The notes: generated by a model from the letters alone, not told the origin. DNA of 64,000 nt from Candidatus Nomurabacteria bacterium (GCA_963842815.1 CAWJHU010000001.1:264708-328707); one strand, 5' to 3'. Shown: positions 9,533-60,994, counted from the stretch's first letter. A program made the numbers and translations.

Positions 9533-10021
9533 ATGAAAAACTCAAAGGGCAAGAATGTGTGGATAGGAGTGGCCGTGATATTAGTTGTAGCCATAATTGT
9601 TTTTCTGTTCAGTTTGTTAAAAAAGGAAACCGTCGGAGTAGATGGAATAATTTCACCCAACAGTAACAATACTGCTCTTTTTCCTCCGTCAACCCTAGAT
9701 ACCAGCGGTAGCTCTGTCCAAGGAACAAAACCAATCTCTATTTCTTATATTGATGCCTTGGCAAAATATGCCAATAAAAGAATTCAATTGGATAAAAATT
9801 GTCAGGCTTTTCCAAACACTGTTACCTACAAAGACAACACGGGAATTATGATAGACAACCGTTCTCCGGAAGTTCGCACGATAAAAATCGGAACAAGCTT
9901 TACGATAAAAGCTTGGGGATTTAAAATAATTACTCTGCCCAACGTTGTTCTCCAATCAAAAACCATCTTCGTTGATTGCGATAAATCTCTAAACGTAGCC
10001 ACCATTCTCGTCCAGGAATAA
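9533..10021 (+). CDS. hypothetical membrane-anchored/secreted protein
   Basis: 162-aa ORF with an N-terminal TM helix (VWIGVAVILVVAIIVFLFSLL) and no recognisable domain. Confidence 0.4.
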   Translation: MKNSKGKNVWIGVAVILVVAIIVFLFSLLKKETVGVDGIISPNSNNTALFPPSTLDTSGSSVQGTKPISISYIDALAKYANKRIQLDKNCQAFPNTVTYKDNTGIMIDNRSPEVRTIKIGTSFTIKAWGFKIITLPNVVLQSKTIFVDCDKSLNVATILVQE

Positions 10022-10899: not shown

Positions 10900-11526
10900 A
10901 TGGAAAAAATAAAAATGTTCTTTGCTCACAAAATTTTTAAAATATTGAAGTGGGCTTTTTTAATTTTGGTCGGATTATATTTAATTCTGATTATCGGTCG
11001 GGTAATTTTTTTGAACAACAAAGCCAAAACAGATGCGCAAGTGATAAAAATTCATAATACCAAACTTACTCTGGATGATGTAATGGGCAAAAATCTTCCG
11101 CCAGACCCGGGGGCCCTAGCTGATGCGACCGTGCAGGGGATTGATGCAAATAATAACGGTATTCGGGATGACGTTGAACTGGCTATTTTTAATGCGTATC
11201 CAAATTCTGCCAAAACCCGCGCCGTGCTTTTGCAGTATGCGCTGGCGTTGCAGATGGAGTTTGCACAATCAATAATAAATAAAGAAATAGTAACAGTGGT
11301 CGCAGAAAAAACATCTGCTGGATATTATTGTATTAGTCAAATAACTTCCAGAGTAGATATGAAAAAGTTTATTGAAATTGGTGATAAATTACACAACTTT
11401 ATTGAAAATAAACAAATAAATACAGAAGAAAGAAAAAAAGCTGAAACAGATTTTTATAAAGGCAACCTTGGTAGTTATGAATTACCTTCCGAATGTGATA
11501 TAGACTTAAATAAATTACAAAATTAA
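10900..11526 (+). CDS. hypothetical membrane-anchored protein
   Basis: 208-aa ORF with an N-terminal TM segment (ILKWAFLILVGLYLILIIGRVIFL); no recognised domain. Confidence 0.4.
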   Translation: MEKIKMFFAHKIFKILKWAFLILVGLYLILIIGRVIFLNNKAKTDAQVIKIHNTKLTLDDVMGKNLPPDPGALADATVQGIDANNNGIRDDVELAIFNAYPNSAKTRAVLLQYALALQMEFAQSIINKEIVTVVAEKTSAGYYCISQITSRVDMKKFIEIGDKLHNFIENKQINTEERKKAETDFYKGNLGSYELPSECDIDLNKLQN

Positions 11527-11538
11527 TTTTTATTTTTT

Positions 11539-14500
11539 ATGAAATTAAAATCAGTAATCATATTATTGTTGTTTTTGTTACCACATTTACTTTTTGCCTC
11601 AACTTGTTCCAGTAATGGTTACACAGTCCTAACTGTTAATGGAATATTTACTGATGAAACTGGAGCAAAGAAAAATTCTGATAAACTGAAATATTATTTT
11701 GAAAATACTTACAACAACCAACCACTTATCGTTGATTTTCTTTATAATCAAACCCACCTCGCCGGTTTTGGGGATGTTATTGACTATGTAAAACAAGGGT
11801 TTTTTGATCAAAAATCGGATTATGACCTGGTGGAAATGCTGAATGACGCCAGTCAAAAAGTCACAACTCAAAAACTTCTCCTCGTTGCCCACTCTCAGGG
11901 CAATTTTTATGCCAATAACTTTTATGATAAAACTGCGTCACAGCCTGGAGGAGTTCCGAGCCAATCTATCGGTGTGTATGGTGTAGCCACTCCTGCCAAT
12001 CGTGTGGCCGGCGGAGGAAGATATTTAACTTCCGATACGGATAAAATTATTGCTGGTTTGGTCGGAGGTACTTTGGCTAGAACTATTATGTCGCCTAACG
12101 CACACATTGTTTTGCAAGAGGGTGATGACAAAAATGGGCATGATTTTTCCGGTGTTTATTTAAAATATCAAAGCGACAAAATTGTTTCCGATATTAAATC
12201 ATCCCTTGATAAACTTCAAAATAATGACGAGCAGGAATCGCAGGACCCTTGTATTTCTCCGCCGGAACTTACCGTTTTTCATAAGGCAGAAGGTGTGGCT
12301 CTTACGTCCGCTGATTTTCTTATAAATAACACAAAAAATGCTGCCGTTTATATTGGAAATGGCATATACAATACCGGCTTGGCGATTGGTAATGCTTTTT
12401 CGGGATTATTTGCCAATGTAGCCGAAATTTTGCCAAGTGGCAATAGTTTGACGACCCTTTCTCCCGATGTTTTGGAACCGACGGATAATCCTTTGGCAAG
12501 TTCTTTCCCGAATTCTTCTGTAAATCAGGAGCAGACATCAGAAATAATAGGAGAAACAGTTACAATTCCAACCACGGAGGCAACGCCTCCGTATACAGAA
12601 AATGTGACGAGTGACAAAATAATAACTACAACCGAATCCATTCCTGTTTCCAATATTCCCAAAGACGAAGAACCAATTTTTGAATTTCGCCGGGGTAATA
12701 ATGGCGCATCAATATCTCAGTCTGAATCCCAATCTGAAACTAAATCCGGGACAGGTTCATCCGGAGAAGAACAGGGAGGACAAGGAGGAAATAATAATTC
12801 ATCAGCTCCGGATATTATTCCTCCAATTATCACCCTGCTCGGCAATAATCCCGAAGTGGTTGTAAAAGGTTCTGCGTACACTGATGCCGGCATTATGGTT
12901 ACTGATGCAGTTGATAGCGCACCCACTTTCACAATGGAAGGAACGGTAAATATCAATACTGTCGGTGTTTACACTATTACCTATACCGCAAAAGATTCTT
13001 CCCAAAATATCGCTACCGCAACACGCACGGTGATAGTTGATGATGGGGCAAAATTAAATAGTCCTAATTTTGTCACTGTCTCCGGCAACTATGCCTATGT
13101 GGTTTCAAGCGCCGGCAATTCTTTTGAAATTATAGATATTTCCAATCCTTCCACTCTAGTGCATAAAAGTTCTCTAGTGCACAACAACGACAACATACAA
13201 CTTTATTCTCCCGGAGGAGTTGCCGTTTCCGGTGATTATGCTTACGTAGTTTCTTACAGTAATAATTTAAATGTTATTGATATCAGCAATCCTCTTTTAC
13301 CTACTATTAAAAGCACTTTAAAAAACGGCGATGGCGGGGCGCAACTTATTCATCCGAATTTTATAACTATTTCCGGCAATTACGCATATATTATTTCCTA
13401 TGGAGGACAGAATGTTGAAATAGTGGATATTTCCGACCCGATTTATCCTGCCCACAAAGGTTCGTATTATATAAATTCGCTTTCCGCGCCGACTTCTTTA
13501 TTTGTTTCCGGCAATTATATGTATTTGACATTTTCTGTTGTAGGGCAAAGCAGCGGAGGTCTTCAAATTTTAGATATTTCTAATCCAGCGCAGCCTGTTT
13601 TAAAAAGCACCGTGAATGATGGTTCCGGTGGAGCAACCATTTCCAATCCGCAATTCGTTTTTGTCTCCGGCAACTATGCTTATATTGCTTCTCGAGGGAC
13701 CAACACTCTTGAAATTATTGATGTTTCAAATCCCGGTTCACCGATTCACAAAGGAAAAATAACCGTTGGTGTTGCCCCGATTTCCGTATCCATTTCCGGC
13801 AATTATGCCTATGTAGCTTCTTTTGTCGGGAGCGCCCTTGAGGTCATAGATATTTCTGACCCAACTAATCCTATTCACAAAGGGAGTTTAGCGAATGGCG
13901 TTTATAATTCGGCTCTTTCTTACCCAACTTCTATTTTTATTTCCGGCAACCTTGCTTATATTTCTTCTTCAATGAGCAAAGCCTTGGAAGTTGTAAATAT
14001 TTCCGACCCGGCTAATCCGATTCATTTAAACAAAATATTAAATGGCGAATTTAATCATACAGACCCGCCTGTCATAATCCCTTCAGCTCCTCCGGCAGAT
14101 ACTACTCCGCCTGTAATTTCTGCGCTTTCTATTTCTCCGTCGCCGGCTGTTTCCGGCTATGCGAAAATTGGCGACACCATAACCCTTTCCATCACCGCTG
14201 ATTCTGCGGGATATACGGCGAAGGCTATCAGCATTAATAATGTTTCCGTAACAAATTTTACCGATAATGGAAATGGGATGTATACAGCTACCTACACTGT
14301 TTCATCCGGAGATAATGATGTGGTTTCCGGCACTATTCCTGTCAGTGTTGTTTTGACTGATGCGGCTGGAAATTCAAATATTGCATATACCACAGTGATA
14401 GCAAATAAATTAAAAATTGACGCCCATGAACCGATTCTCATTTTTGCCAATGTTACTTCAGCGACTACTATCGATGCCACATTCAGCGAAGATATTGATG

Positions 14501-54836: not shown

Positions 54837-54838
54837 TG

Positions 54839-54909
54839 CTGGGAGACTTGGACTCGAACCAAGATAACATCCTCCAGAGGGATGTGTCCTACCATTAGAC
54901 GATCTCCCA
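54839..54909 (-). tRNA. tRNA-Gln (anticodon CTG)
   Basis: Reverse complement TGGGAGATCGTCTAATGGTAGGACACATCCCTCTGGAGGATGTTATCTTGGTTCGAGTCCAAGTCTCCCAG has a U1-A72 pair and G73 as in bacterial tRNA-Gln, with anticodon loop CTCTGGA. Confidence 0.65.
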
Positions 54910-54949
54910 ATGGCCTATATACAATAATACAAAATTAGCTTTTTATCAA

Positions 54950-55369
54950 ATGGATTTTATTTGCTATAATAAACCTATGAAATACTTTCACACGGCAATA
55001 TCGGTAAATAGTATAGAAAAATCGCAGGCATTTTATGAGTCGGTTTTTGGTTTAAAATTTCAATCAAAAGGGGGAAGACCAGAGCTCAAGATAAAATTTG
55101 TTAATTTGGAAGATGAAAGCGGAAATGTTATTGAACTTTTTGAACATGAAAATCCATTGCCATTAAAAGATGATTTGATGGATTTTCAGAAAGTGGGAAT
55201 TAAACATATTTCTTTTATTGTTGAAAATCTTGAAGAAGCGATAGAAAAAGCGACATCTTTTGGCGCCAAAATTGTTTGGCCCATAAAAGAGGGAATAACA
55301 GTCAAAAGACTCGCTTTCATTTCCGACCCAAATGGAATACCTATTGAATTGGTGGAATTAAAAGATTAA
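54950..55369 (+). CDS. VOC/glyoxalase-family protein (alternative start at 54977)
   Basis: MKYFHTAISVNSIEKSQAFYESVFGL...VGIKHISFIVENLEEAIEKA...PNGIPIELVE matches the glyoxalase fold. Confidence 0.65.
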   Translation: MDFICYNKPMKYFHTAISVNSIEKSQAFYESVFGLKFQSKGGRPELKIKFVNLEDESGNVIELFEHENPLPLKDDLMDFQKVGIKHISFIVENLEEAIEKATSFGAKIVWPIKEGITVKRLAFISDPNGIPIELVELKD

Positions 55370-55379
55370 TTATAAAAAT

Positions 55380-55844
55380 ATGAAAATTACTATTTGTGGT
55401 AGTATTGGGTTTTATAAAGAAATGGAATCTGCCAGAGATGAACTTTTAGAGCTTGGTCATGAGATAAAAATACCAGAATTAGCCCTTGAAGTTCCTAAGG
55501 AATTTGGAGGGGGCAAGAAAATGTATTTTGGTCAATACATTGAAGAAAACGGAGGCATTGATTCTTTTCCTGTTGGGAATAAAATATGGGATCTCAAAGA
55601 AAATGCAATAAGAGACCACTATGAAAAAATTAATTGGGCTGATGTGATTTTGGTAATTAATCAAGAGAAACGAGGTATCGCAGGATATATTGGCGGTAAT
55701 ACTCTTATTGAAATAAGGGTTGCTTTTTACTTTAAAAAACCAATTTTTATTTTAAATCCTGTGTCATCAGAACTTTCTTATAAACAAGAAATACTGGGCA
55801 TAAAACCAGTTATTTTGAATGGTAATTTAAATAATATTAAATAA
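55380..55844 (+). CDS. nucleoside 2-deoxyribosyltransferase-like / DNPH1-like N-glycosidase fold protein
   Basis: MKITICGSIGF (compare K-I-Y-L-A-G-P) at the N-terminus; C-terminal GNTLIEIRVAFYFKKPIFIL (compare sGTafEiGyAyalgKPvi, catalytic Glu). Confidence 0.45.
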   Translation: MKITICGSIGFYKEMESARDELLELGHEIKIPELALEVPKEFGGGKKMYFGQYIEENGGIDSFPVGNKIWDLKENAIRDHYEKINWADVILVINQEKRGIAGYIGGNTLIEIRVAFYFKKPIFILNPVSSELSYKQEILGIKPVILNGNLNNIK

Positions 55845-55848
55845 AATT

Positions 55849-56412
55849 ATGAATGATTATTTACAAATGTTAGAAATTGTTAACGAAAATGATAAAGTCA
55901 TTGGTCTTGAAAATCGTACAAAAATTCACAAAGAAGGGCTACTTCATCGTGAAATACACATTTGGTTTATTACCCCACAGGGGAAAATTATTTTTCAGCA
56001 TAGGGCAAAAGACAAAGACACATACCCCGATAAACTAGATGCAACCGTGGGGGGACACGTTGAACCCAATGCATCTTACGAAGAAACCGCCATTAAAGAA
56101 TGCAAAGAAGAAACAGGAATAAAAATAGACGTTAAAAAGCTTTTTTTTCTTGCGAAAATGAAAAAGAAAAGTTTTGATAAAGTAACCGGCTTAACAAATA
56201 ATACCATACGCAGTCAATACGCTTATTTATACGAGGGTTTAATAAAAGACTTACAAATTGAAAAGGGAAAGTCGGAAGGTTTTGAGGCCTGGAAAATTGA
56301 CGACTTATCAAATCTTTCTGAAAATGATAAAAGTAAATTCATCGGACTTATTCTCAACGAGGACATGTTAGCTCTTTTTAAAAAAGCAAAGGAAGCTCTA
56401 ATTAAAAAGTAG
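55849..56412 (+). CDS. NUDIX hydrolase
   Basis: Nudix box GGHVEPNASYEETAIKECKEETGI (Gx5Ex7REuxEExGu). Confidence 0.8.
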   Translation: MNDYLQMLEIVNENDKVIGLENRTKIHKEGLLHREIHIWFITPQGKIIFQHRAKDKDTYPDKLDATVGGHVEPNASYEETAIKECKEETGIKIDVKKLFFLAKMKKKSFDKVTGLTNNTIRSQYAYLYEGLIKDLQIEKGKSEGFEAWKIDDLSNLSENDKSKFIGLILNEDMLALFKKAKEALIKK

Positions 56413-56496
56413 CCTTATTTTGTAATAAATAAGTTACAACGTCGTACCAGACTCTCAACCAGAGATTTTAGCTAAAACTTGGTATAATAAAAGCAT

Positions 56497-57051
56497 ATGA
56501 AAATTAATATTTGGATAATGCTGAAGGACATATTGCCAGTTTTATTAATGTTTTGGCCTGTTTGGCTGGCCCTTATTATATTGTTTTTAACAAAGATACT
56601 ATTTGAAGTGGTTATTCCTAAATGGCGCAATAATAATCGTTTTTGGGCTGGTAAAAAATGGCGGTCTGATCGTGAACTTCTTCAGTCGCTTCAAAAATTA
56701 ACTCCTACGGAATTTGAAAATTATATAGCCAATCTATTCTCGCACTTAGGATACAATACAAAAGCTGTCGGGCAGTCGCACGATGGTGGTATTGACGTTG
56801 TTGTAGAGAAAAATAGAGTAGTAAATTACATTCAATGCAAAAAATATATTACAAGCACAGTTCCCGTAGGGGCAGTACGAGATTTTTATGGGGCTTTAGC
56901 TGATCATCTTGCAAATGGCAAAGGATATTTTATTACAACAAACAAATTTACTCTAGAGGCTGAAAATTTTGCGAAAGACAAACCAATTGAACTCATTGAT
57001 GGTCTGAAATTGATACACTATATTCATATGTACCAATCAAATAGTCGTTAA
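56497..57051 (+). CDS. membrane-anchored restriction-endonuclease-like (Mrr_cat, PD-(D/E)xK) protein
   Basis: Two N-terminal TM helices; FENYIANLFSHLGYNTKAVGQSHDGGIDVVVEKNRVVNYIQCKKY carries the D...E.K catalytic core. Confidence 0.7.
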   Translation: MKINIWIMLKDILPVLLMFWPVWLALIILFLTKILFEVVIPKWRNNNRFWAGKKWRSDRELLQSLQKLTPTEFENYIANLFSHLGYNTKAVGQSHDGGIDVVVEKNRVVNYIQCKKYITSTVPVGAVRDFYGALADHLANGKGYFITTNKFTLEAENFAKDKPIELIDGLKLIHYIHMYQSNSR

Positions 57052-57068
57052 TCTGCCATAATAAACCT

Positions 57069-57662
57069 ATGCAAACTGAAATTGAAGCCAAGTTTTTAAA
57101 TATAGAGTCCGATAAAATCAGAGCCAAATTAAAAGAAATAGGAGCTGTTTTGAAATACCCGGAGCGCCTTATGAAAAGAAAAGTTTTTGATTATCCGGAT
57201 GAAAGATTAAAAAAAGAAGGAGCTTGGGTGCGGGTTAGAGACGAGGGAGACGGGAAAATAACTTTAAGCTATAAAAAACTTATAGACAGAACTCTTCATG
57301 GCACGAAAGAAATAACCTTGGATGTAAGCGATTTTGAAACCATGTGCGATTTTCTTCAGGCTTGCGGATTTGATAGTAAATCATATCAAGAAACGAAAAG
57401 AGAAAAATGGATGCTTGGAAAATCGGAAATAACCATTGATACCTGGCCTTGGATACCGACTTTTGTAGAGGTAGAATCGGAAACGGAAGAGGATGTCCGC
57501 GAAGTTTCAAAATTACTGGGTTTTGATTGGGCCAAAGCACTTCATGGAAGCGTGGAGACGGTCTATCAGGCCCTATTTGATGTCACAGAAGACGAAATTG
57601 ATAGCTGGGAAGAGATTACATTTATTCCTGTCCCGAATTGGTTGGAAATTAAAAGAAGATAA
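57069..57662 (+). CDS. CYTH-domain protein (triphosphate tunnel metalloenzyme; class IV adenylate cyclase / thiamine-triphosphatase fold)
   Basis: Hallmark N-terminal EIEAKF motif (MQTEIEAKFLNI) plus later charged beta strands (WVRVRDEGDGKITLSYKK). Confidence 0.75.
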   Translation: MQTEIEAKFLNIESDKIRAKLKEIGAVLKYPERLMKRKVFDYPDERLKKEGAWVRVRDEGDGKITLSYKKLIDRTLHGTKEITLDVSDFETMCDFLQACGFDSKSYQETKREKWMLGKSEITIDTWPWIPTFVEVESETEEDVREVSKLLGFDWAKALHGSVETVYQALFDVTEDEIDSWEEITFIPVPNWLEIKRR

Positions 57663-57666
57663 TAAA

Positions 57667-57690
57667 AAGGCAGAATACTCTGCCTTTTTT
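57667..57690. terminator. bidirectional Rho-independent terminator (AAGGCAGA-ATAC-TCTGCCTT + T-run)
   Basis: Located between convergent genes 57069..57662 (+) and 57710..57985 (-). Confidence 0.65.
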
Positions 57691-57709: not shown

Positions 57710-57985
57710 TTAATTCTTTTGAAAATTTTTCAAGAGAAGAATTTGGGGTGAATCGTTAATCTCTTCAGAATCCACCGGGGTATCCAATTTTAAATTTTTA
57801 GATAATTCAATAAATCCGTCTAAACTAAAAAGAACAGGAATTTTAGCGCCACAAGCAAGGCACTGGAATAGAAAAACATATCCGCACTCTTTCAATTCTA
57901 TTCTTATGGAAAGTACTGTTTGTCTTCCATTGCAAGTACATTTGGGGTCTAGGTAAATGACGTTGTTTTCCATTTGAACCTCCAA
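57710..57985 (-). CDS. hypothetical small Cys-containing protein (CxC...CxxC)
   Basis: 91-aa ORF ending at the bidirectional terminator; possible zinc-binding Cys pairs. Confidence 0.3.
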   Translation of the reverse strand: MEVQMENNVIYLDPKCTCNGRQTVLSIRIELKECGYVFLFQCLACGAKIPVLFSLDGFIELSKNLKLDTPVDSEEINDSPQILLLKNFQKN

Positions 57986-58073: not shown

Positions 58074-58727
58074 ATGTTTAAATTTATAAAAATAAATAAA
58101 ACAACCCAATGGCTTCTTTTAATTTCCATCATCGCCGTTATTTTTGACCTGGTCCGGGGCGATTTGTTAGGGAAGACAGGCATACTCTATTTGGTCTGGA
58201 ATCTTTTTTTGGCCTGGATACCCTATATTATTTCTTTGTGTTTTATAAAAAAAGAAATGCCCATAAAACGTTTTATTCCGATTTTTATTATCTGGCTTTT
58301 ATTTTTTCCCAATGCTCCCTATCTGGCCACCGATGTTCTGCATATAGTTTCAAGGAATTCGCCTTTGTTGTGGTATGATAGTTTGCTTTTCTTTTTCTTC
58401 GGCTGGATTGGTTTGCTTTTGGGAATGCTTTCGCTTTCCCATATGCATCAATACATAAAAAATCATTTCAGTTTTTGGCTTTCCGAGCTGAGTATTTTTT
58501 TAATTTGTTTTTTAGCGAGCTTCGGAATATATCTGGGCAGATTTGAAAGATGGAACAGCTGGGATGTTTTTATTAATCCGGTGGAAATAATAAAACACTC
58601 TGTTAATATTTCCGCCAATCTTGCATATACCAAAACTCCGGCGATGTTCATACTTGTTTTTACCGTCTTTATGTATTCGGTCTATAAAACGGTATCTGTT
58701 TTGCTTGGGCGCGAGGTTGAATCCTAA
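58074..58727 (+). CDS. hypothetical polytopic membrane protein
   Basis: 217 aa with about 6 predicted TM helices; no recognised motif. Confidence 0.4.
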   Translation: MFKFIKINKTTQWLLLISIIAVIFDLVRGDLLGKTGILYLVWNLFLAWIPYIISLCFIKKEMPIKRFIPIFIIWLLFFPNAPYLATDVLHIVSRNSPLLWYDSLLFFFFGWIGLLLGMLSLSHMHQYIKNHFSFWLSELSIFLICFLASFGIYLGRFERWNSWDVFINPVEIIKHSVNISANLAYTKTPAMFILVFTVFMYSVYKTVSVLLGREVES

Positions 58728-59140: not shown

Positions 59141-60994
59141 ATGAGATACAAAATATCTAGGCAGTCTATTTCGTTTTCACATTATTATTTATCTTTGTTT
59201 TTTATCGGTATTTTTGCGTTTTTAATGTTTGCTTCTCCTGTGCAGGCCACTACTCCTACGCTTACTCTTTCTCCCACCGGTGACGGGGATACGGTCAATG
59301 TGAATGTAACGGGCGACCCCAGCACCAGCGTCATTCTTTATTATATGAAAACCAATTACGGCCAGCAGATAAATCCCATTGGGACAACCAATGCAAATGG
59401 AATTCTGGCTACCACCATCAGCACCAGCACCTACGGCATTGTGGCCAATAGTTCGGTTTACATTACCATGGGCAGTTTGAATGGTCCACAATCGGCAACC
59501 GTTTCTTGGCCCATAGCTTCGGCTTTAATTTCAAGCAGCAACATGCTTTCTCTGAGCCAGACCGGCGTTGTTCTTTCCCTCGGGCAATCTTCCACCATCA
59601 CTGCCAGCAACATGAATTCCAGTTCGCTTTATTTATCAAACAATTCCACTCCGGCCATAGCCAACGTAAATATAAGCGGCAGCCAAATTACCATTTTGGC
59701 GAATAGTTATGGTTCAACGGTGGCTACCATTTGTTTGGTCAACAACAGTTCAAATTGCTCCAGCGTTTATATTACCGTTCAGAATTCCAGCGCTCAGCCG
59801 TTAACTTTCAGCCAAAATACGGTTTCCATGTATTCCGGACAAAGCATTTCCGTGCAAATATCCGGCGGTTCCGGGACCTACTCGGTATTTAATAACACAA
59901 GCCAGAATGGCGGGGTGGTGCAGACCAGTATTTCCGGTTCAAATATTACATTAACTACCACAAGCACTTCCGGTTCATCTTCCATCACCGTCTGTTCCAC
60001 CAATATGAGTTCCTGTGGAATTATAAATGTTACCATCGGCTCCGGAAGTTCTACCGCTATTTCTTTCAGCCAATCAAATCCGACGGTTGTCATCGGGCAA
60101 ACCACAAACGTGAGCGTCTATGGCCCGACCAGCAGTTTATTTTATGTTTCTTCAAATTCCAATCCGAGCATCGTACAAGCCAATTTATCCGGAACCACTT
60201 TAACTTTGATGGGAATTACAAATGGTTCTTCCACCATAAGCGTATGTTCTTCATCTAGCAATTGCGGGTCTCTGACGGTAACGGTTAATTATAGTTCCAC
60301 CAATGGCGGGGGATATCCTGTTCTAAGCCAGGACAATGTTTCTTTGGCGGTGGGTCAAACGTTGAATATTACAATTTCCGGAGGGTCAATGCCTTATAAT
60401 ATTCTTTCCACGACAAATAATATTTTTCAACCGACTTTAAACGTTAATATGCTTTCTATTTATGGCTTGGGTGCTGGTTCCGGAGCGATGAATGTATGTT
60501 CTTCCGGCGGAAATTGCGCCACTCTTTCGGTGACAGTGGGCAACAGCTCTTCTGCCGTCACCACATTGCCTGTCGGTTGTTATACGACGACGGGTTATAG
60601 CCAAACCACCGGCGTGCTTTGCAATTCCACCACCACTCCGGCTACAACTATTATTCCAACTGGCTGTACTTCTTCCACTTTATTTAGTACGATTACCGGA
60701 CAATCTTGTCCAAATTATGTTTACACATCCACCACCGCAACTACCACCACAAACACAACAACTTCCAGCACAACTACAACTTTTAAATTTACTTTACCGC
60801 TGAAACTGGGCTCAAGCGGTACGGAAGTAATTGAATTGCAAAAGAAATTAAAAACCCTTGGCTACTATAACGGCAAAGTTGACGGAGGATTCGGTCCTAT
60901 GATGGTCAAAGCGGTAAAAGCTTTCCAAAAAGCGCACAAGCTTGCCCAATTGGGCAGTGTTGGTCCGGGGACGAGAGCTTTGCTCAATAAATAA
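59141..60994 (+). CDS. secreted surface protein with repeated Ig-like (Big-like) Ser/Thr-rich domains, two Cys-bounded loop motifs and C-terminal peptidoglycan-binding domain
   Basis: Signal peptide; about 5 repeats of ~85 aa (..SQ..VS...GQS.....SGGSG.Y.......); CYTTTGYSQTTGVLC and CTSSTLFSTITGQSC motifs; C-terminal LKLGSSGTEVIELQKKLKTLGYYNGKVDGGFGPMMVKAVKAFQKAHKL. Confidence 0.6.
   Translation: MRYKISRQSISFSHYYLSLFFIGIFAFLMFASPVQATTPTLTLSPTGDGDTVNVNVTGDPSTSVILYYMKTNYGQQINPIGTTNANGILATTISTSTYGIVANSSVYITMGSLNGPQSATVSWPIASALISSSNMLSLSQTGVVLSLGQSSTITASNMNSSSLYLSNNSTPAIANVNISGSQITILANSYGSTVATICLVNNSSNCSSVYITVQNSSAQPLTFSQNTVSMYSGQSISVQISGGSGTYSVFNNTSQNGGVVQTSISGSNITLTTTSTSGSSSITVCSTNMSSCGIINVTIGSGSSTAISFSQSNPTVVIGQTTNVSVYGPTSSLFYVSSNSNPSIVQANLSGTTLTLMGITNGSSTISVCSSSSNCGSLTVTVNYSSTNGGGYPVLSQDNVSLAVGQTLNITISGGSMPYNILSTTNNIFQPTLNVNMLSIYGLGAGSGAMNVCSSGGNCATLSVTVGNSSSAVTTLPVGCYTTTGYSQTTGVLCNSTTTPATTIIPTGCTSSTLFSTITGQSCPNYVYTSTTATTTTNTTTSSTTTTFKFTLPLKLGSSGTEVIELQKKLKTLGYYNGKVDGGFGPMMVKAVKAFQKAHKLAQLGSVGPGTRALLNK

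Follow-up and report, generated by a model that had tools for sequence, protein, structure and literature searches.

Does a row of five genes on one strand, closely spaced and closed by a single terminator, encode one system, or has it merely come together in one lineage? This question is raised by a locus in a 64,000-nucleotide stretch of a Candidatus Nomurabacteria bacterium genome (GCA_963842815.1, CAWJHU010000001.1:264708-328707; this whole stretch is 'the window' below), in which open reading frames (ORFs) for a VOC/glyoxalase-fold protein, a 154-residue protein referred to here as P2, a NUDIX hydrolase, a membrane-anchored Mrr-type nuclease and a CYTH-domain protein follow one another beside a tRNA-Gln gene. 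An earlier note on this DNA had read them as a tight operon serving either nucleotide-pool sanitation or an uncharacterised anti-phage or nucleotide-modification function. We put at roughly two in three the probability that the cluster is a lineage-specific juxtaposition in this Paceibacteria-type genome of the candidate phyla radiation (CPR)/Patescibacteria, in which a nucleotide house-cleaning or salvage core made of P2 and NUDIX, with CYTH as a possible third member, stands next to a solitary Mrr nuclease and an unrelated VOC enzyme.

All five ORFs are present on the plus strand as first described, separated by gaps of 10, 4, 84 and 17 nt, and the strong terminator placed at their end is an 11-bp hairpin stem followed by a T-run, lying between CYTH and a convergent minus-strand ORF. 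Pfam likewise confirms the domain calls for VOC, NUDIX, Mrr_cat and CYTH, and the membrane anchor attributed to Mrr corresponds to a strongly hydrophobic segment. An independent (Logan) assembly of the same organism, L001, carries an identical copy of the region.

Gene order in related genomes

The five-gene order is not conserved. We surveyed 80 loci around P2 (6 kb around; one genome per species, from 207 species with a relative), 80 metagenomic loci around Mrr (4 kb around) and eight loci around CYTH, the P2 loci being scanned by tblastn with all window proteins. Not one of the P2 loci, all from different species, contained a homologue of VOC or Mrr within 6 kb, and none of the Mrr loci contained a homologue of P2, VOC or the window NUDIX within 4 kb, leaving VOC without a single homologue near P2 or Mrr in the two sets (80 + 80). 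CYTH was found in one of the 80 Mrr loci, at a distance of ~950 bp. The eight CYTH loci contained neither Mrr nor P2; a Glyoxalase gene in L166, 3.3 kb upstream, was their sole VOC-type gene. NUDIX was adjacent to CYTH in one of them and within 3 kb in four. A smaller, two-gene module of Mrr and CYTH was also considered, and was rejected on that one distant co-occurrence among the Mrr loci and none among the CYTH loci.

The earlier note advised a test of neighbourhood conservation across CPR genomes, and stated that finding the five genes unlinked in related genomes, each in a housekeeping context, would refute its reading. They are unlinked in relatives, and the CYTH loci that were inspected do lie among housekeeping genes: across the eight contexts the neighbours include DnaK-DnaJ, an ABC transporter (3/8), tRNA synthetases, TatC and an overlapping HD-domain gene. 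In L162-L164 an ABC transporter of 591-593 aa (ABC_membrane + ABC_tran) comes directly after CYTH, and in two of these DnaK-DnaJ come before it; the HD-domain gene, in L166, overlaps CYTH by 8 nt.

The P2 family and its partners

The linkage that does recur is that of P2 with enzymes acting on nucleoside triphosphates. The gene immediately upstream of P2 (n=72) encodes a NUDIX protein in 25 cases, DUF84/NTPase_I-T in 8, Maf in 2, CYTH in 2 and inorganic pyrophosphatase in 1, and 43 of these 72 neighbours are on the same strand and within 30 nt; downstream (n=74) the counts are NUDIX 5, uracil-DNA glycosylase (UDG) 3, Maf 2, CYTH 2 and DUF84 1. P2 is also found fused to NUDIX (5 proteins), DUF84 (3), MazG (2) and Maf (1). 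NUDIX genes flank P2 about nine times more commonly than they flank Mrr (Fisher p = 1.6e-5, a value that overstates independence, as the loci are related), and homologues of the window NUDIX itself (48-66% identity) lie directly upstream of P2 in 6 of the 80 loci, in other species. CYTH homologues were detected in five loci, adjoining P2 in L052, L070 and L072 and two genes upstream of it in L064, with the fifth, L112, belonging to the Mrr set. NUDIX, DUF84, Maf and MazG have unrelated folds, and the product common to them is a nucleoside monophosphate made from a non-canonical or surplus triphosphate. Removal of the base from that monophosphate by P2 would be the simplest mechanism to unify the four partner families.

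P2 itself gives no significant sequence match in Pfam, NCBIfam, PADLOC or PDB, whether as a single sequence or as a profile of 64 sequences. The earlier description of it as a deoxyribosyltransferase-like protein with the fold of DNPH1 is nevertheless borne out by its predicted structure and by a bridging profile match. An AlphaFold model built with 25 homologues (predicted local distance difference test score, pLDDT, 82.5) has a three-layer alpha/beta topology, for which nucleoside 2-deoxyribosyltransferases (NDTs) are the best Foldseek match (E = 4.7e-4), ahead of the CMP N-glycosidase BcmB, DNPH1 and YtoQ; the modelled flavodoxin-like alpha/beta fold is that of solved NDT and DNPH1 structures, and structure comparison finds it TIR-like as well. 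The sequence bridge is provided by multidomain members of the family that combine a P2 domain with a paralogue of it assigned by Pfam to PF05014, the link to PF05014 being drawn because these NDT-like copies, in tandem or fused, connect the two. Residues 1-115 of one such protein, P0149, score 43.3 bits on PF05014 (cut-off 28.8) and match the P2 profile in hhalign with 97.9% probability (E = 6e-13), and the P2 domains of P0142 and P0164 have weak PF05014 matches of their own. P2 often has a paralogue in tandem, or is fused in one two-domain protein to a copy closer to NDT (GYLGT..LMELG), as at L057 6001-6916, L079 6001-6881 and L040 3588-3908 and in proteins P0129, P0138, P0149 and P0234. On its modelled fold and this bridging match, P2 is a divergent member of the NDT/DNPH1 superfamily, not a DNPH1 orthologue, and a putative N-glycosidase.

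Across 64 diverse P2 relatives, seven residues reach a conservation of 90% or more: Glu111, Ser8, Lys97, Tyr103, Gly105, Asn107 and Glu137. The first of these is the glutamate in GNTLIEI that had been singled out as catalytic, and the choice is upheld by its near-invariance and by the alignment with P0149, which places Glu111 (GGNTLIEIG) on the conserved Glu of NSVNMEIGYA in the PF05014-positive domain, a residue that, from its NMEIGYA motif, is taken to be the NDT catalytic Glu. Glu111 opens the helix that follows strand 4. In DNPH1 the nucleophile is Glu104, with Tyr24 and Asp80 (PMC10603095). Glu111 aligns with this Glu104 in hhalign, in an alignment of 1.5% probability; there the position of Asp80 is occupied by P2 His80, directly after Asp79, and the triad acid may be retained as Asp79.

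The closest known systems are DNPH1/Rcl, the 2'-deoxynucleoside 5'-phosphate N-hydrolase, and the CMP N-glycosidases MilB/BcmB, all of the PF05014 superfamily, which share with P2 the flavodoxin-like fold and the conserved Glu after strand 4; DNPH1 shares, in addition, a CGS loop after strand 1 and the proposed role of a sanitiser acting on monophosphates of the nucleotide pool. DNPH1 removes the base from hmdUMP and MilB/BcmB from (hm)CMP, and the CGS loop may have a role in phosphate binding. Unlike these enzymes, P2 has an N-x2-K-x-G-x2-GYIGGNT loop and an insert of ~30 residues (35-65), has Thr4 in place of the triad tyrosine, shows no significant direct sequence match to them, and is habitually coupled or fused to nucleoside triphosphate (NTP) pyrophosphatases.

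The family is large, with at least 951 clusters at 50% identity in an exhaustive search of representatives, but neither Pfam nor NCBIfam has a model for it, and a literature search turned up no description of it. Window P2 has 553 close homologues, the best 120 of which are 73-84% identical and come from many Patescibacteria lineages. The few homologues that carry source names are Paceibacterota or Kaiserbacteria, an affiliation that puts the window among the Paceibacteria/Parcubacteria of the CPR, and a single relative was found among 2.9 million viral contigs. At one locus, L011, P2 (6001-6453) is 80% identical to its window counterpart and the CTP synthase PyrG (11149-12447) 67%, a comparison of P2 with CTP synthase conservation that was available at this locus only.

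We hypothesize that P2 and NUDIX, whose genes are translationally coupled 4 nt apart, act in succession, with CYTH as a looser associate. An NTP pyrophosphatase or phosphatase would first take a (d)NTP or (d)NDP that is non-canonical or in excess down to the monophosphate; here this enzyme would be the YfcD/DR0079-like NUDIX, and in other genomes another NUDIX, DUF84/ITPase, Maf or MazG, while the CYTH tunnel enzyme might work alongside as a tri- or polyphosphatase. P2, with Glu111 as nucleophile, would then cleave the N-glycosidic bond of the monophosphate to give the base and (deoxy)ribose 5-phosphate, so that the nucleotide could not be re-phosphorylated and the sugar phosphate would be recovered. 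That P2 represents a branch of the NDT/DNPH1 superfamily in prokaryotes that has not been described before, and that it performs this second house-cleaning step, on (d)NMP made by NUDIX, DUF84, Maf or MazG, is a tentative proposal to which we give slightly less than even odds.

The other genes, their transcription and the flanks

The NUDIX protein (Pfam 49 bits against a cut-off of 21) finds its best PDB and NCBIfam matches in E. coli YfcD (2fkb) and Deinococcus DR0079 (1q27). It differs from both in scoring far below the NCBIfam equivalog cut-offs (65.4 bits for YfcD against 152, 55.8 for IDI against 127) and in a deviant Nudix box that is conserved in its subfamily: where the canonical motif is GX5EX7REUXEEXGU, the window protein has G-x5-A-x7-K-E-C-x-E-E-x-G-I, with the first Glu replaced by Ala and the Arg by Lys, as in six homologues, and with the E-E-x-G core kept. 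DR0079 is reported to prefer cytosine (deoxy)nucleoside di- and triphosphates.

CYTH (Pfam 49 bits, cut-off 23) has lost none of its charged tunnel residues and retains the ExExK motif, which answers the question, left by the earlier note, of whether the acidic tunnel is intact: E4, E6, R37, R55, R57, E59, K69, E108, R111, E112, E120, D124, E134 and E136 show no variation across 20 homologues, and K8 is kept in 90% or more of these. In these features it resembles known CYTH enzymes such as Saci_0718 (PDB 7ns8) and the CyaB class IV cyclases. It is unlike CyaB in falling below the equivalog cut-off of the class IV adenylate cyclase model (TIGR00318; 41.8 bits against 57.95) and in a conserved C-terminal extension of ~55 residues beyond the Pfam match. 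With 2474 homologues at 65-88% identity across Parcubacteria, it may be a tri- or polyphosphatase loosely tied to the same nucleotide metabolism as P2 and NUDIX.

The Mrr protein scores 100 bits on Mrr_cat (PF04471) and has an intact D...D...QxK motif, D96, D100, Q113 and K115 being invariant in 22 homologues. Residues 12-40 or so form its one strongly hydrophobic stretch, and the flank directly after it carries a net charge of +5; for this reason the nuclease domain is most likely cytoplasmic. It has the catalytic domain of the Mrr-type type IV restriction endonucleases and is unlike them in its N-terminus, where residues 1-60 comprise one transmembrane (TM) segment and a basic linker only, with no Mrr_N-type DNA-binding domain, and in being a solitary gene with variable neighbours. 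This TM-Mrr family, to which the homologues P0272-P0390 belong, has 946 homologues at ~55-66% identity, mostly in Patescibacteria, of which most carry a C-terminal topoisomerase-type C4 zinc finger (PF01396) that the window copy and a minority lack; a literature search found no paper describing the family. Among 109 genes flanking Mrr no family recurs, the highest counts being 3 each for RhuM, NUDIX, SMC_N and AAA_22, and the defence-type GmrSD_N and Schlafen occur twice. Mrr is probably a solitary, membrane-tethered nuclease, restriction-like or DNA-processing, with its own predicted promoter and independent of P2 and NUDIX.

The VOC protein matches Pfam Glyoxalase (1.1e-13) and stays under the cut-offs of all YaeR-like and glyoxalase I models in NCBIfam. 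Its start is most likely Met10, giving 130 aa, because this is the length called in L001 and because an extended -10 box lies just before that codon, with a spacing of 6 nt. The best reading is that it is an unrelated small-molecule enzyme which by chance comes first in the transcript that also carries P2 and NUDIX.

The cluster had further been called a tight operon, a description that stands as regards the common strand, the short gaps and the single end terminator. It is doubtful as regards transcription as one unit, as Mrr and CYTH have boxes of their own, and it fails as regards a conserved order. Extended -10 boxes precede three of the five genes, VOC, Mrr and CYTH, and are absent from P2 and NUDIX (Table 1). 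The region's top promoter match is that of VOC, which reads TGCTATAAT-AAACCT-ATG at Met10; CYTH has TGCCATAAT-AAACCT-ATG, an identical 18-mer, TGCYATAATAAACCTATG, lying upstream of both, and Mrr has a TGnTATAAT-type box in the form TGGTATAAT-N8-ATG. We consider VOC-P2-NUDIX, Mrr and CYTH to be the likely transcription units, the first being treated as one because P2 and NUDIX have no box and follow at 10 and 4 nt. In the window as a whole, a TATAAT-like box ends 4-9 nt 5' of the start in 19 of 62 ORF-called genes compared with 4.9% of all ATG trinucleotides, a background that falls to 0.7% when the TGn extension is included; examples are the starts at 9533, 10106, 23278, 53989, 54977, 56497, 57069 and 59141. 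A box so close to the ATG at 54977 suggests a leaderless VOC transcript, and the frequency of such boxes suggests that leaderless transcription is widespread in this genome.

Table 1. Features of the cluster and its borders, in window coordinates
Feature	Position	Strand	Basis or remark
tRNA-Gln (anticodon CTG)	54838-54909	-	ARAGORN; 5' end toward cluster
Promoter-like site: TTATCA, 16 nt, TGCTATAAT (extended -10)	54943-54970	+	Top match of promoter scan, 10/12 with TG
VOC/glyoxalase-fold protein, 130 aa from Met10 (most likely start)	54977-55369 (ORF from 54950)	+	Pfam Glyoxalase 1.1e-13
P2, 154 aa; divergent NDT/DNPH1-superfamily protein, putative (d)NMP N-glycosidase	55380-55844	+	Candidate nucleophile Glu111 in GGNTLIEI; N-terminal CGS loop
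NUDIX hydrolase, YfcD/DR0079-like clade	55849-56412	+	Pfam NUDIX 7e-13; 4 nt after P2
Extended -10 box TGGTATAAT	56480-56488	+	8 nt 5' of Mrr ATG
Membrane-anchored Mrr_cat (PD-(D/E)xK) nuclease, 184 aa	56497-57051	+	Pfam Mrr_cat 1.1e-28
Extended -10-like box TGCCATAAT	57054-57062	+	6 nt 5' of CYTH ATG; within 18-mer TGCYATAATAAACCTATG
CYTH/triphosphate tunnel metalloenzyme, 197 aa	57069-57662	+	Pfam CYTH 7.4e-13
Hairpin terminator, core GGCAGA-GTAT-TCTGCC, A and T runs either side	57664-57689		Between convergent genes

Beyond the terminator, the convergent ORF at 57710-57985 (minus strand) encodes a Cys-rich protein of 91 aa (CTCNG...CLACG) that is called as a gene in L001 too and has no match in Pfam, NCBIfam or PADLOC. 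It is followed by a DUF1361 gene, a single 217-aa ORF at 58074-58727 that is split in L001 (3193-3842), where the split could be an assembly error or a strain-level frameshift, and by a gene at 59141-60994 for a repetitive protein of 617 aa, rich in Ser/Thr, whose C-terminal domain is PG_binding_1. A homologue of the latter, 62% identical, lies ~3 kb downstream of CYTH in a relative, L169 (7817-8594), from which we take the downstream flank of the cluster to be syntenic and the upstream flank not.

Alternative explanations and significance

The alternative that comes closest concerns P2 alone, which might be a true NDT performing base exchange, or a nucleoside or NAD/ADP-ribose glycohydrolase serving salvage, and not an N-glycosidase of monophosphates. 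Its closest folds are indeed those of NDTs and TIR NADases, CPR bacteria are generally described as salvage-dependent, and ten of the 72 upstream neighbours of P2 weakly resemble NAD diphosphatase models. That resemblance, however, reaches only 26 bits against a cut-off of 158, P2 shares with DNPH1 (YFCGS) the CGS loop after strand 1, and P2 is fused or tightly coupled to four unrelated families of NTP pyrophosphatases or phosphatases whose common product is NMP or dNMP. We regard this alternative as unlikely, though less so than two explanations that take the five genes as a unit. One makes them a nucleotide-signalling anti-phage system, in which CYTH would make the signal, a cyclic or other nucleotide, NUDIX and P2 would tune or degrade it and the membrane-bound Mrr would be the effector; the TIR-like aspect of the P2 fold, the common strand and terminator, and the few Mrr homologues that adjoin RhuM, GmrSD or Schlafen genes are compatible with it. 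In PADLOC (DB v2) the Mrr domain matches the generic type IV restriction model mREase_IV, PDC-S02 and the C-terminus of ZorD, and NUDIX matches PDC-S07 marginally (20 bits); P2, CYTH and VOC have no match. The linkage that such a system demands does not recur, as none of 80 loci places Mrr beside CYTH, P2 or a window-NUDIX homologue, and none of eight places CYTH beside Mrr. Mrr has no part that would sense nucleotides, only its TM segment and the nuclease domain, CYTH falls short of the CyaB cyclase cut-off, and Mrr and CYTH have their own predicted promoters; identities of 65-88% across entire CPR classes set CYTH and P2 apart, moreover, from defence genes, which turn over fast. A defence or modification operon of this kind, as raised in the earlier note, is accordingly so improbable that the locus does not merit pursuit as a candidate defence system.

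Hardly better placed, and very unlikely in our estimation, is the explanation that the cluster is a genomic island acquired horizontally as a unit at tRNA-Gln. The cluster does adjoin the tRNA gene, as had been pointed out, and its G+C content is 31-36% compared with ~40% for the window. But islands usually integrate at the 3' end of a tRNA gene, and with tRNA-Gln on the minus strand it is the 5' end that the cluster faces; the 24-mer at the tRNA 3' end occurs once in the window, leaving no att repeat, and no integrase or recombinase ORF was found in 52.5-60.5 kb. The window has comparable G+C dips in other places, the lineage conserves P2 and CYTH, and in L169 the PG_binding gene keeps its place downstream of CYTH. 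Of the two functions first considered, nucleotide-pool sanitation therefore fares better and fits part of the cluster, namely P2, NUDIX and probably CYTH, with Mrr and VOC as incidental neighbours. What the analysis shows are the domains, the fold, the conserved key residues, the linkages and fusions of P2 and the lack of a constant five-gene order; the chemistry and substrates of P2, the role of CYTH, the topology of Mrr and the activity of the promoters are inferred from these.

Several points weigh against reading the locus as a P2-NUDIX core among incidental neighbours, or against the chemistry proposed for P2. The hhalign alignment of the P2 profile with human DNPH1, whose sequence was confirmed against PDB, is not significant, and P2 is without the triad tyrosine of DNPH1 and NDT, having Thr4 at the Y24 position (TICGS vs YFCGS). 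NCBIfam typing of the NUDIX partners of P2 yields sub-threshold, mixed matches only, from which no substrate class can be assigned. The surveyed genomes are related, so that the neighbourhood counts do not represent independent events; the ORFs in the surveyed loci were called by a simple heuristic, and the surveys were made with P2, Mrr and CYTH as queries. Finally, the 84-nt spacer between NUDIX and Mrr shows no convincing terminator on folding (z = -1.0), which makes read-through from NUDIX into Mrr possible and, with it, co-transcription of all five genes in this organism.

The only new element at this locus is the P2 family, likely a family of (d)NMP N-glycosidases, for which no family model exists. 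Its fusions to four unrelated families of NTP pyrophosphatases provide a clear, testable prediction for a widespread family. If the prediction is true, P2 would correspond, in bacteria, to human DNPH1, and those bacteria that are unable to make nucleotides would have in it an important enzyme of salvage. Its confirmation would give the sanitation of bacterial nucleotide pools a further route, pyrophosphatase plus N-glycosidase, and would help to explain how ultrasmall, nucleotide-auxotrophic bacteria recycle or detoxify the nucleotides that they scavenge.

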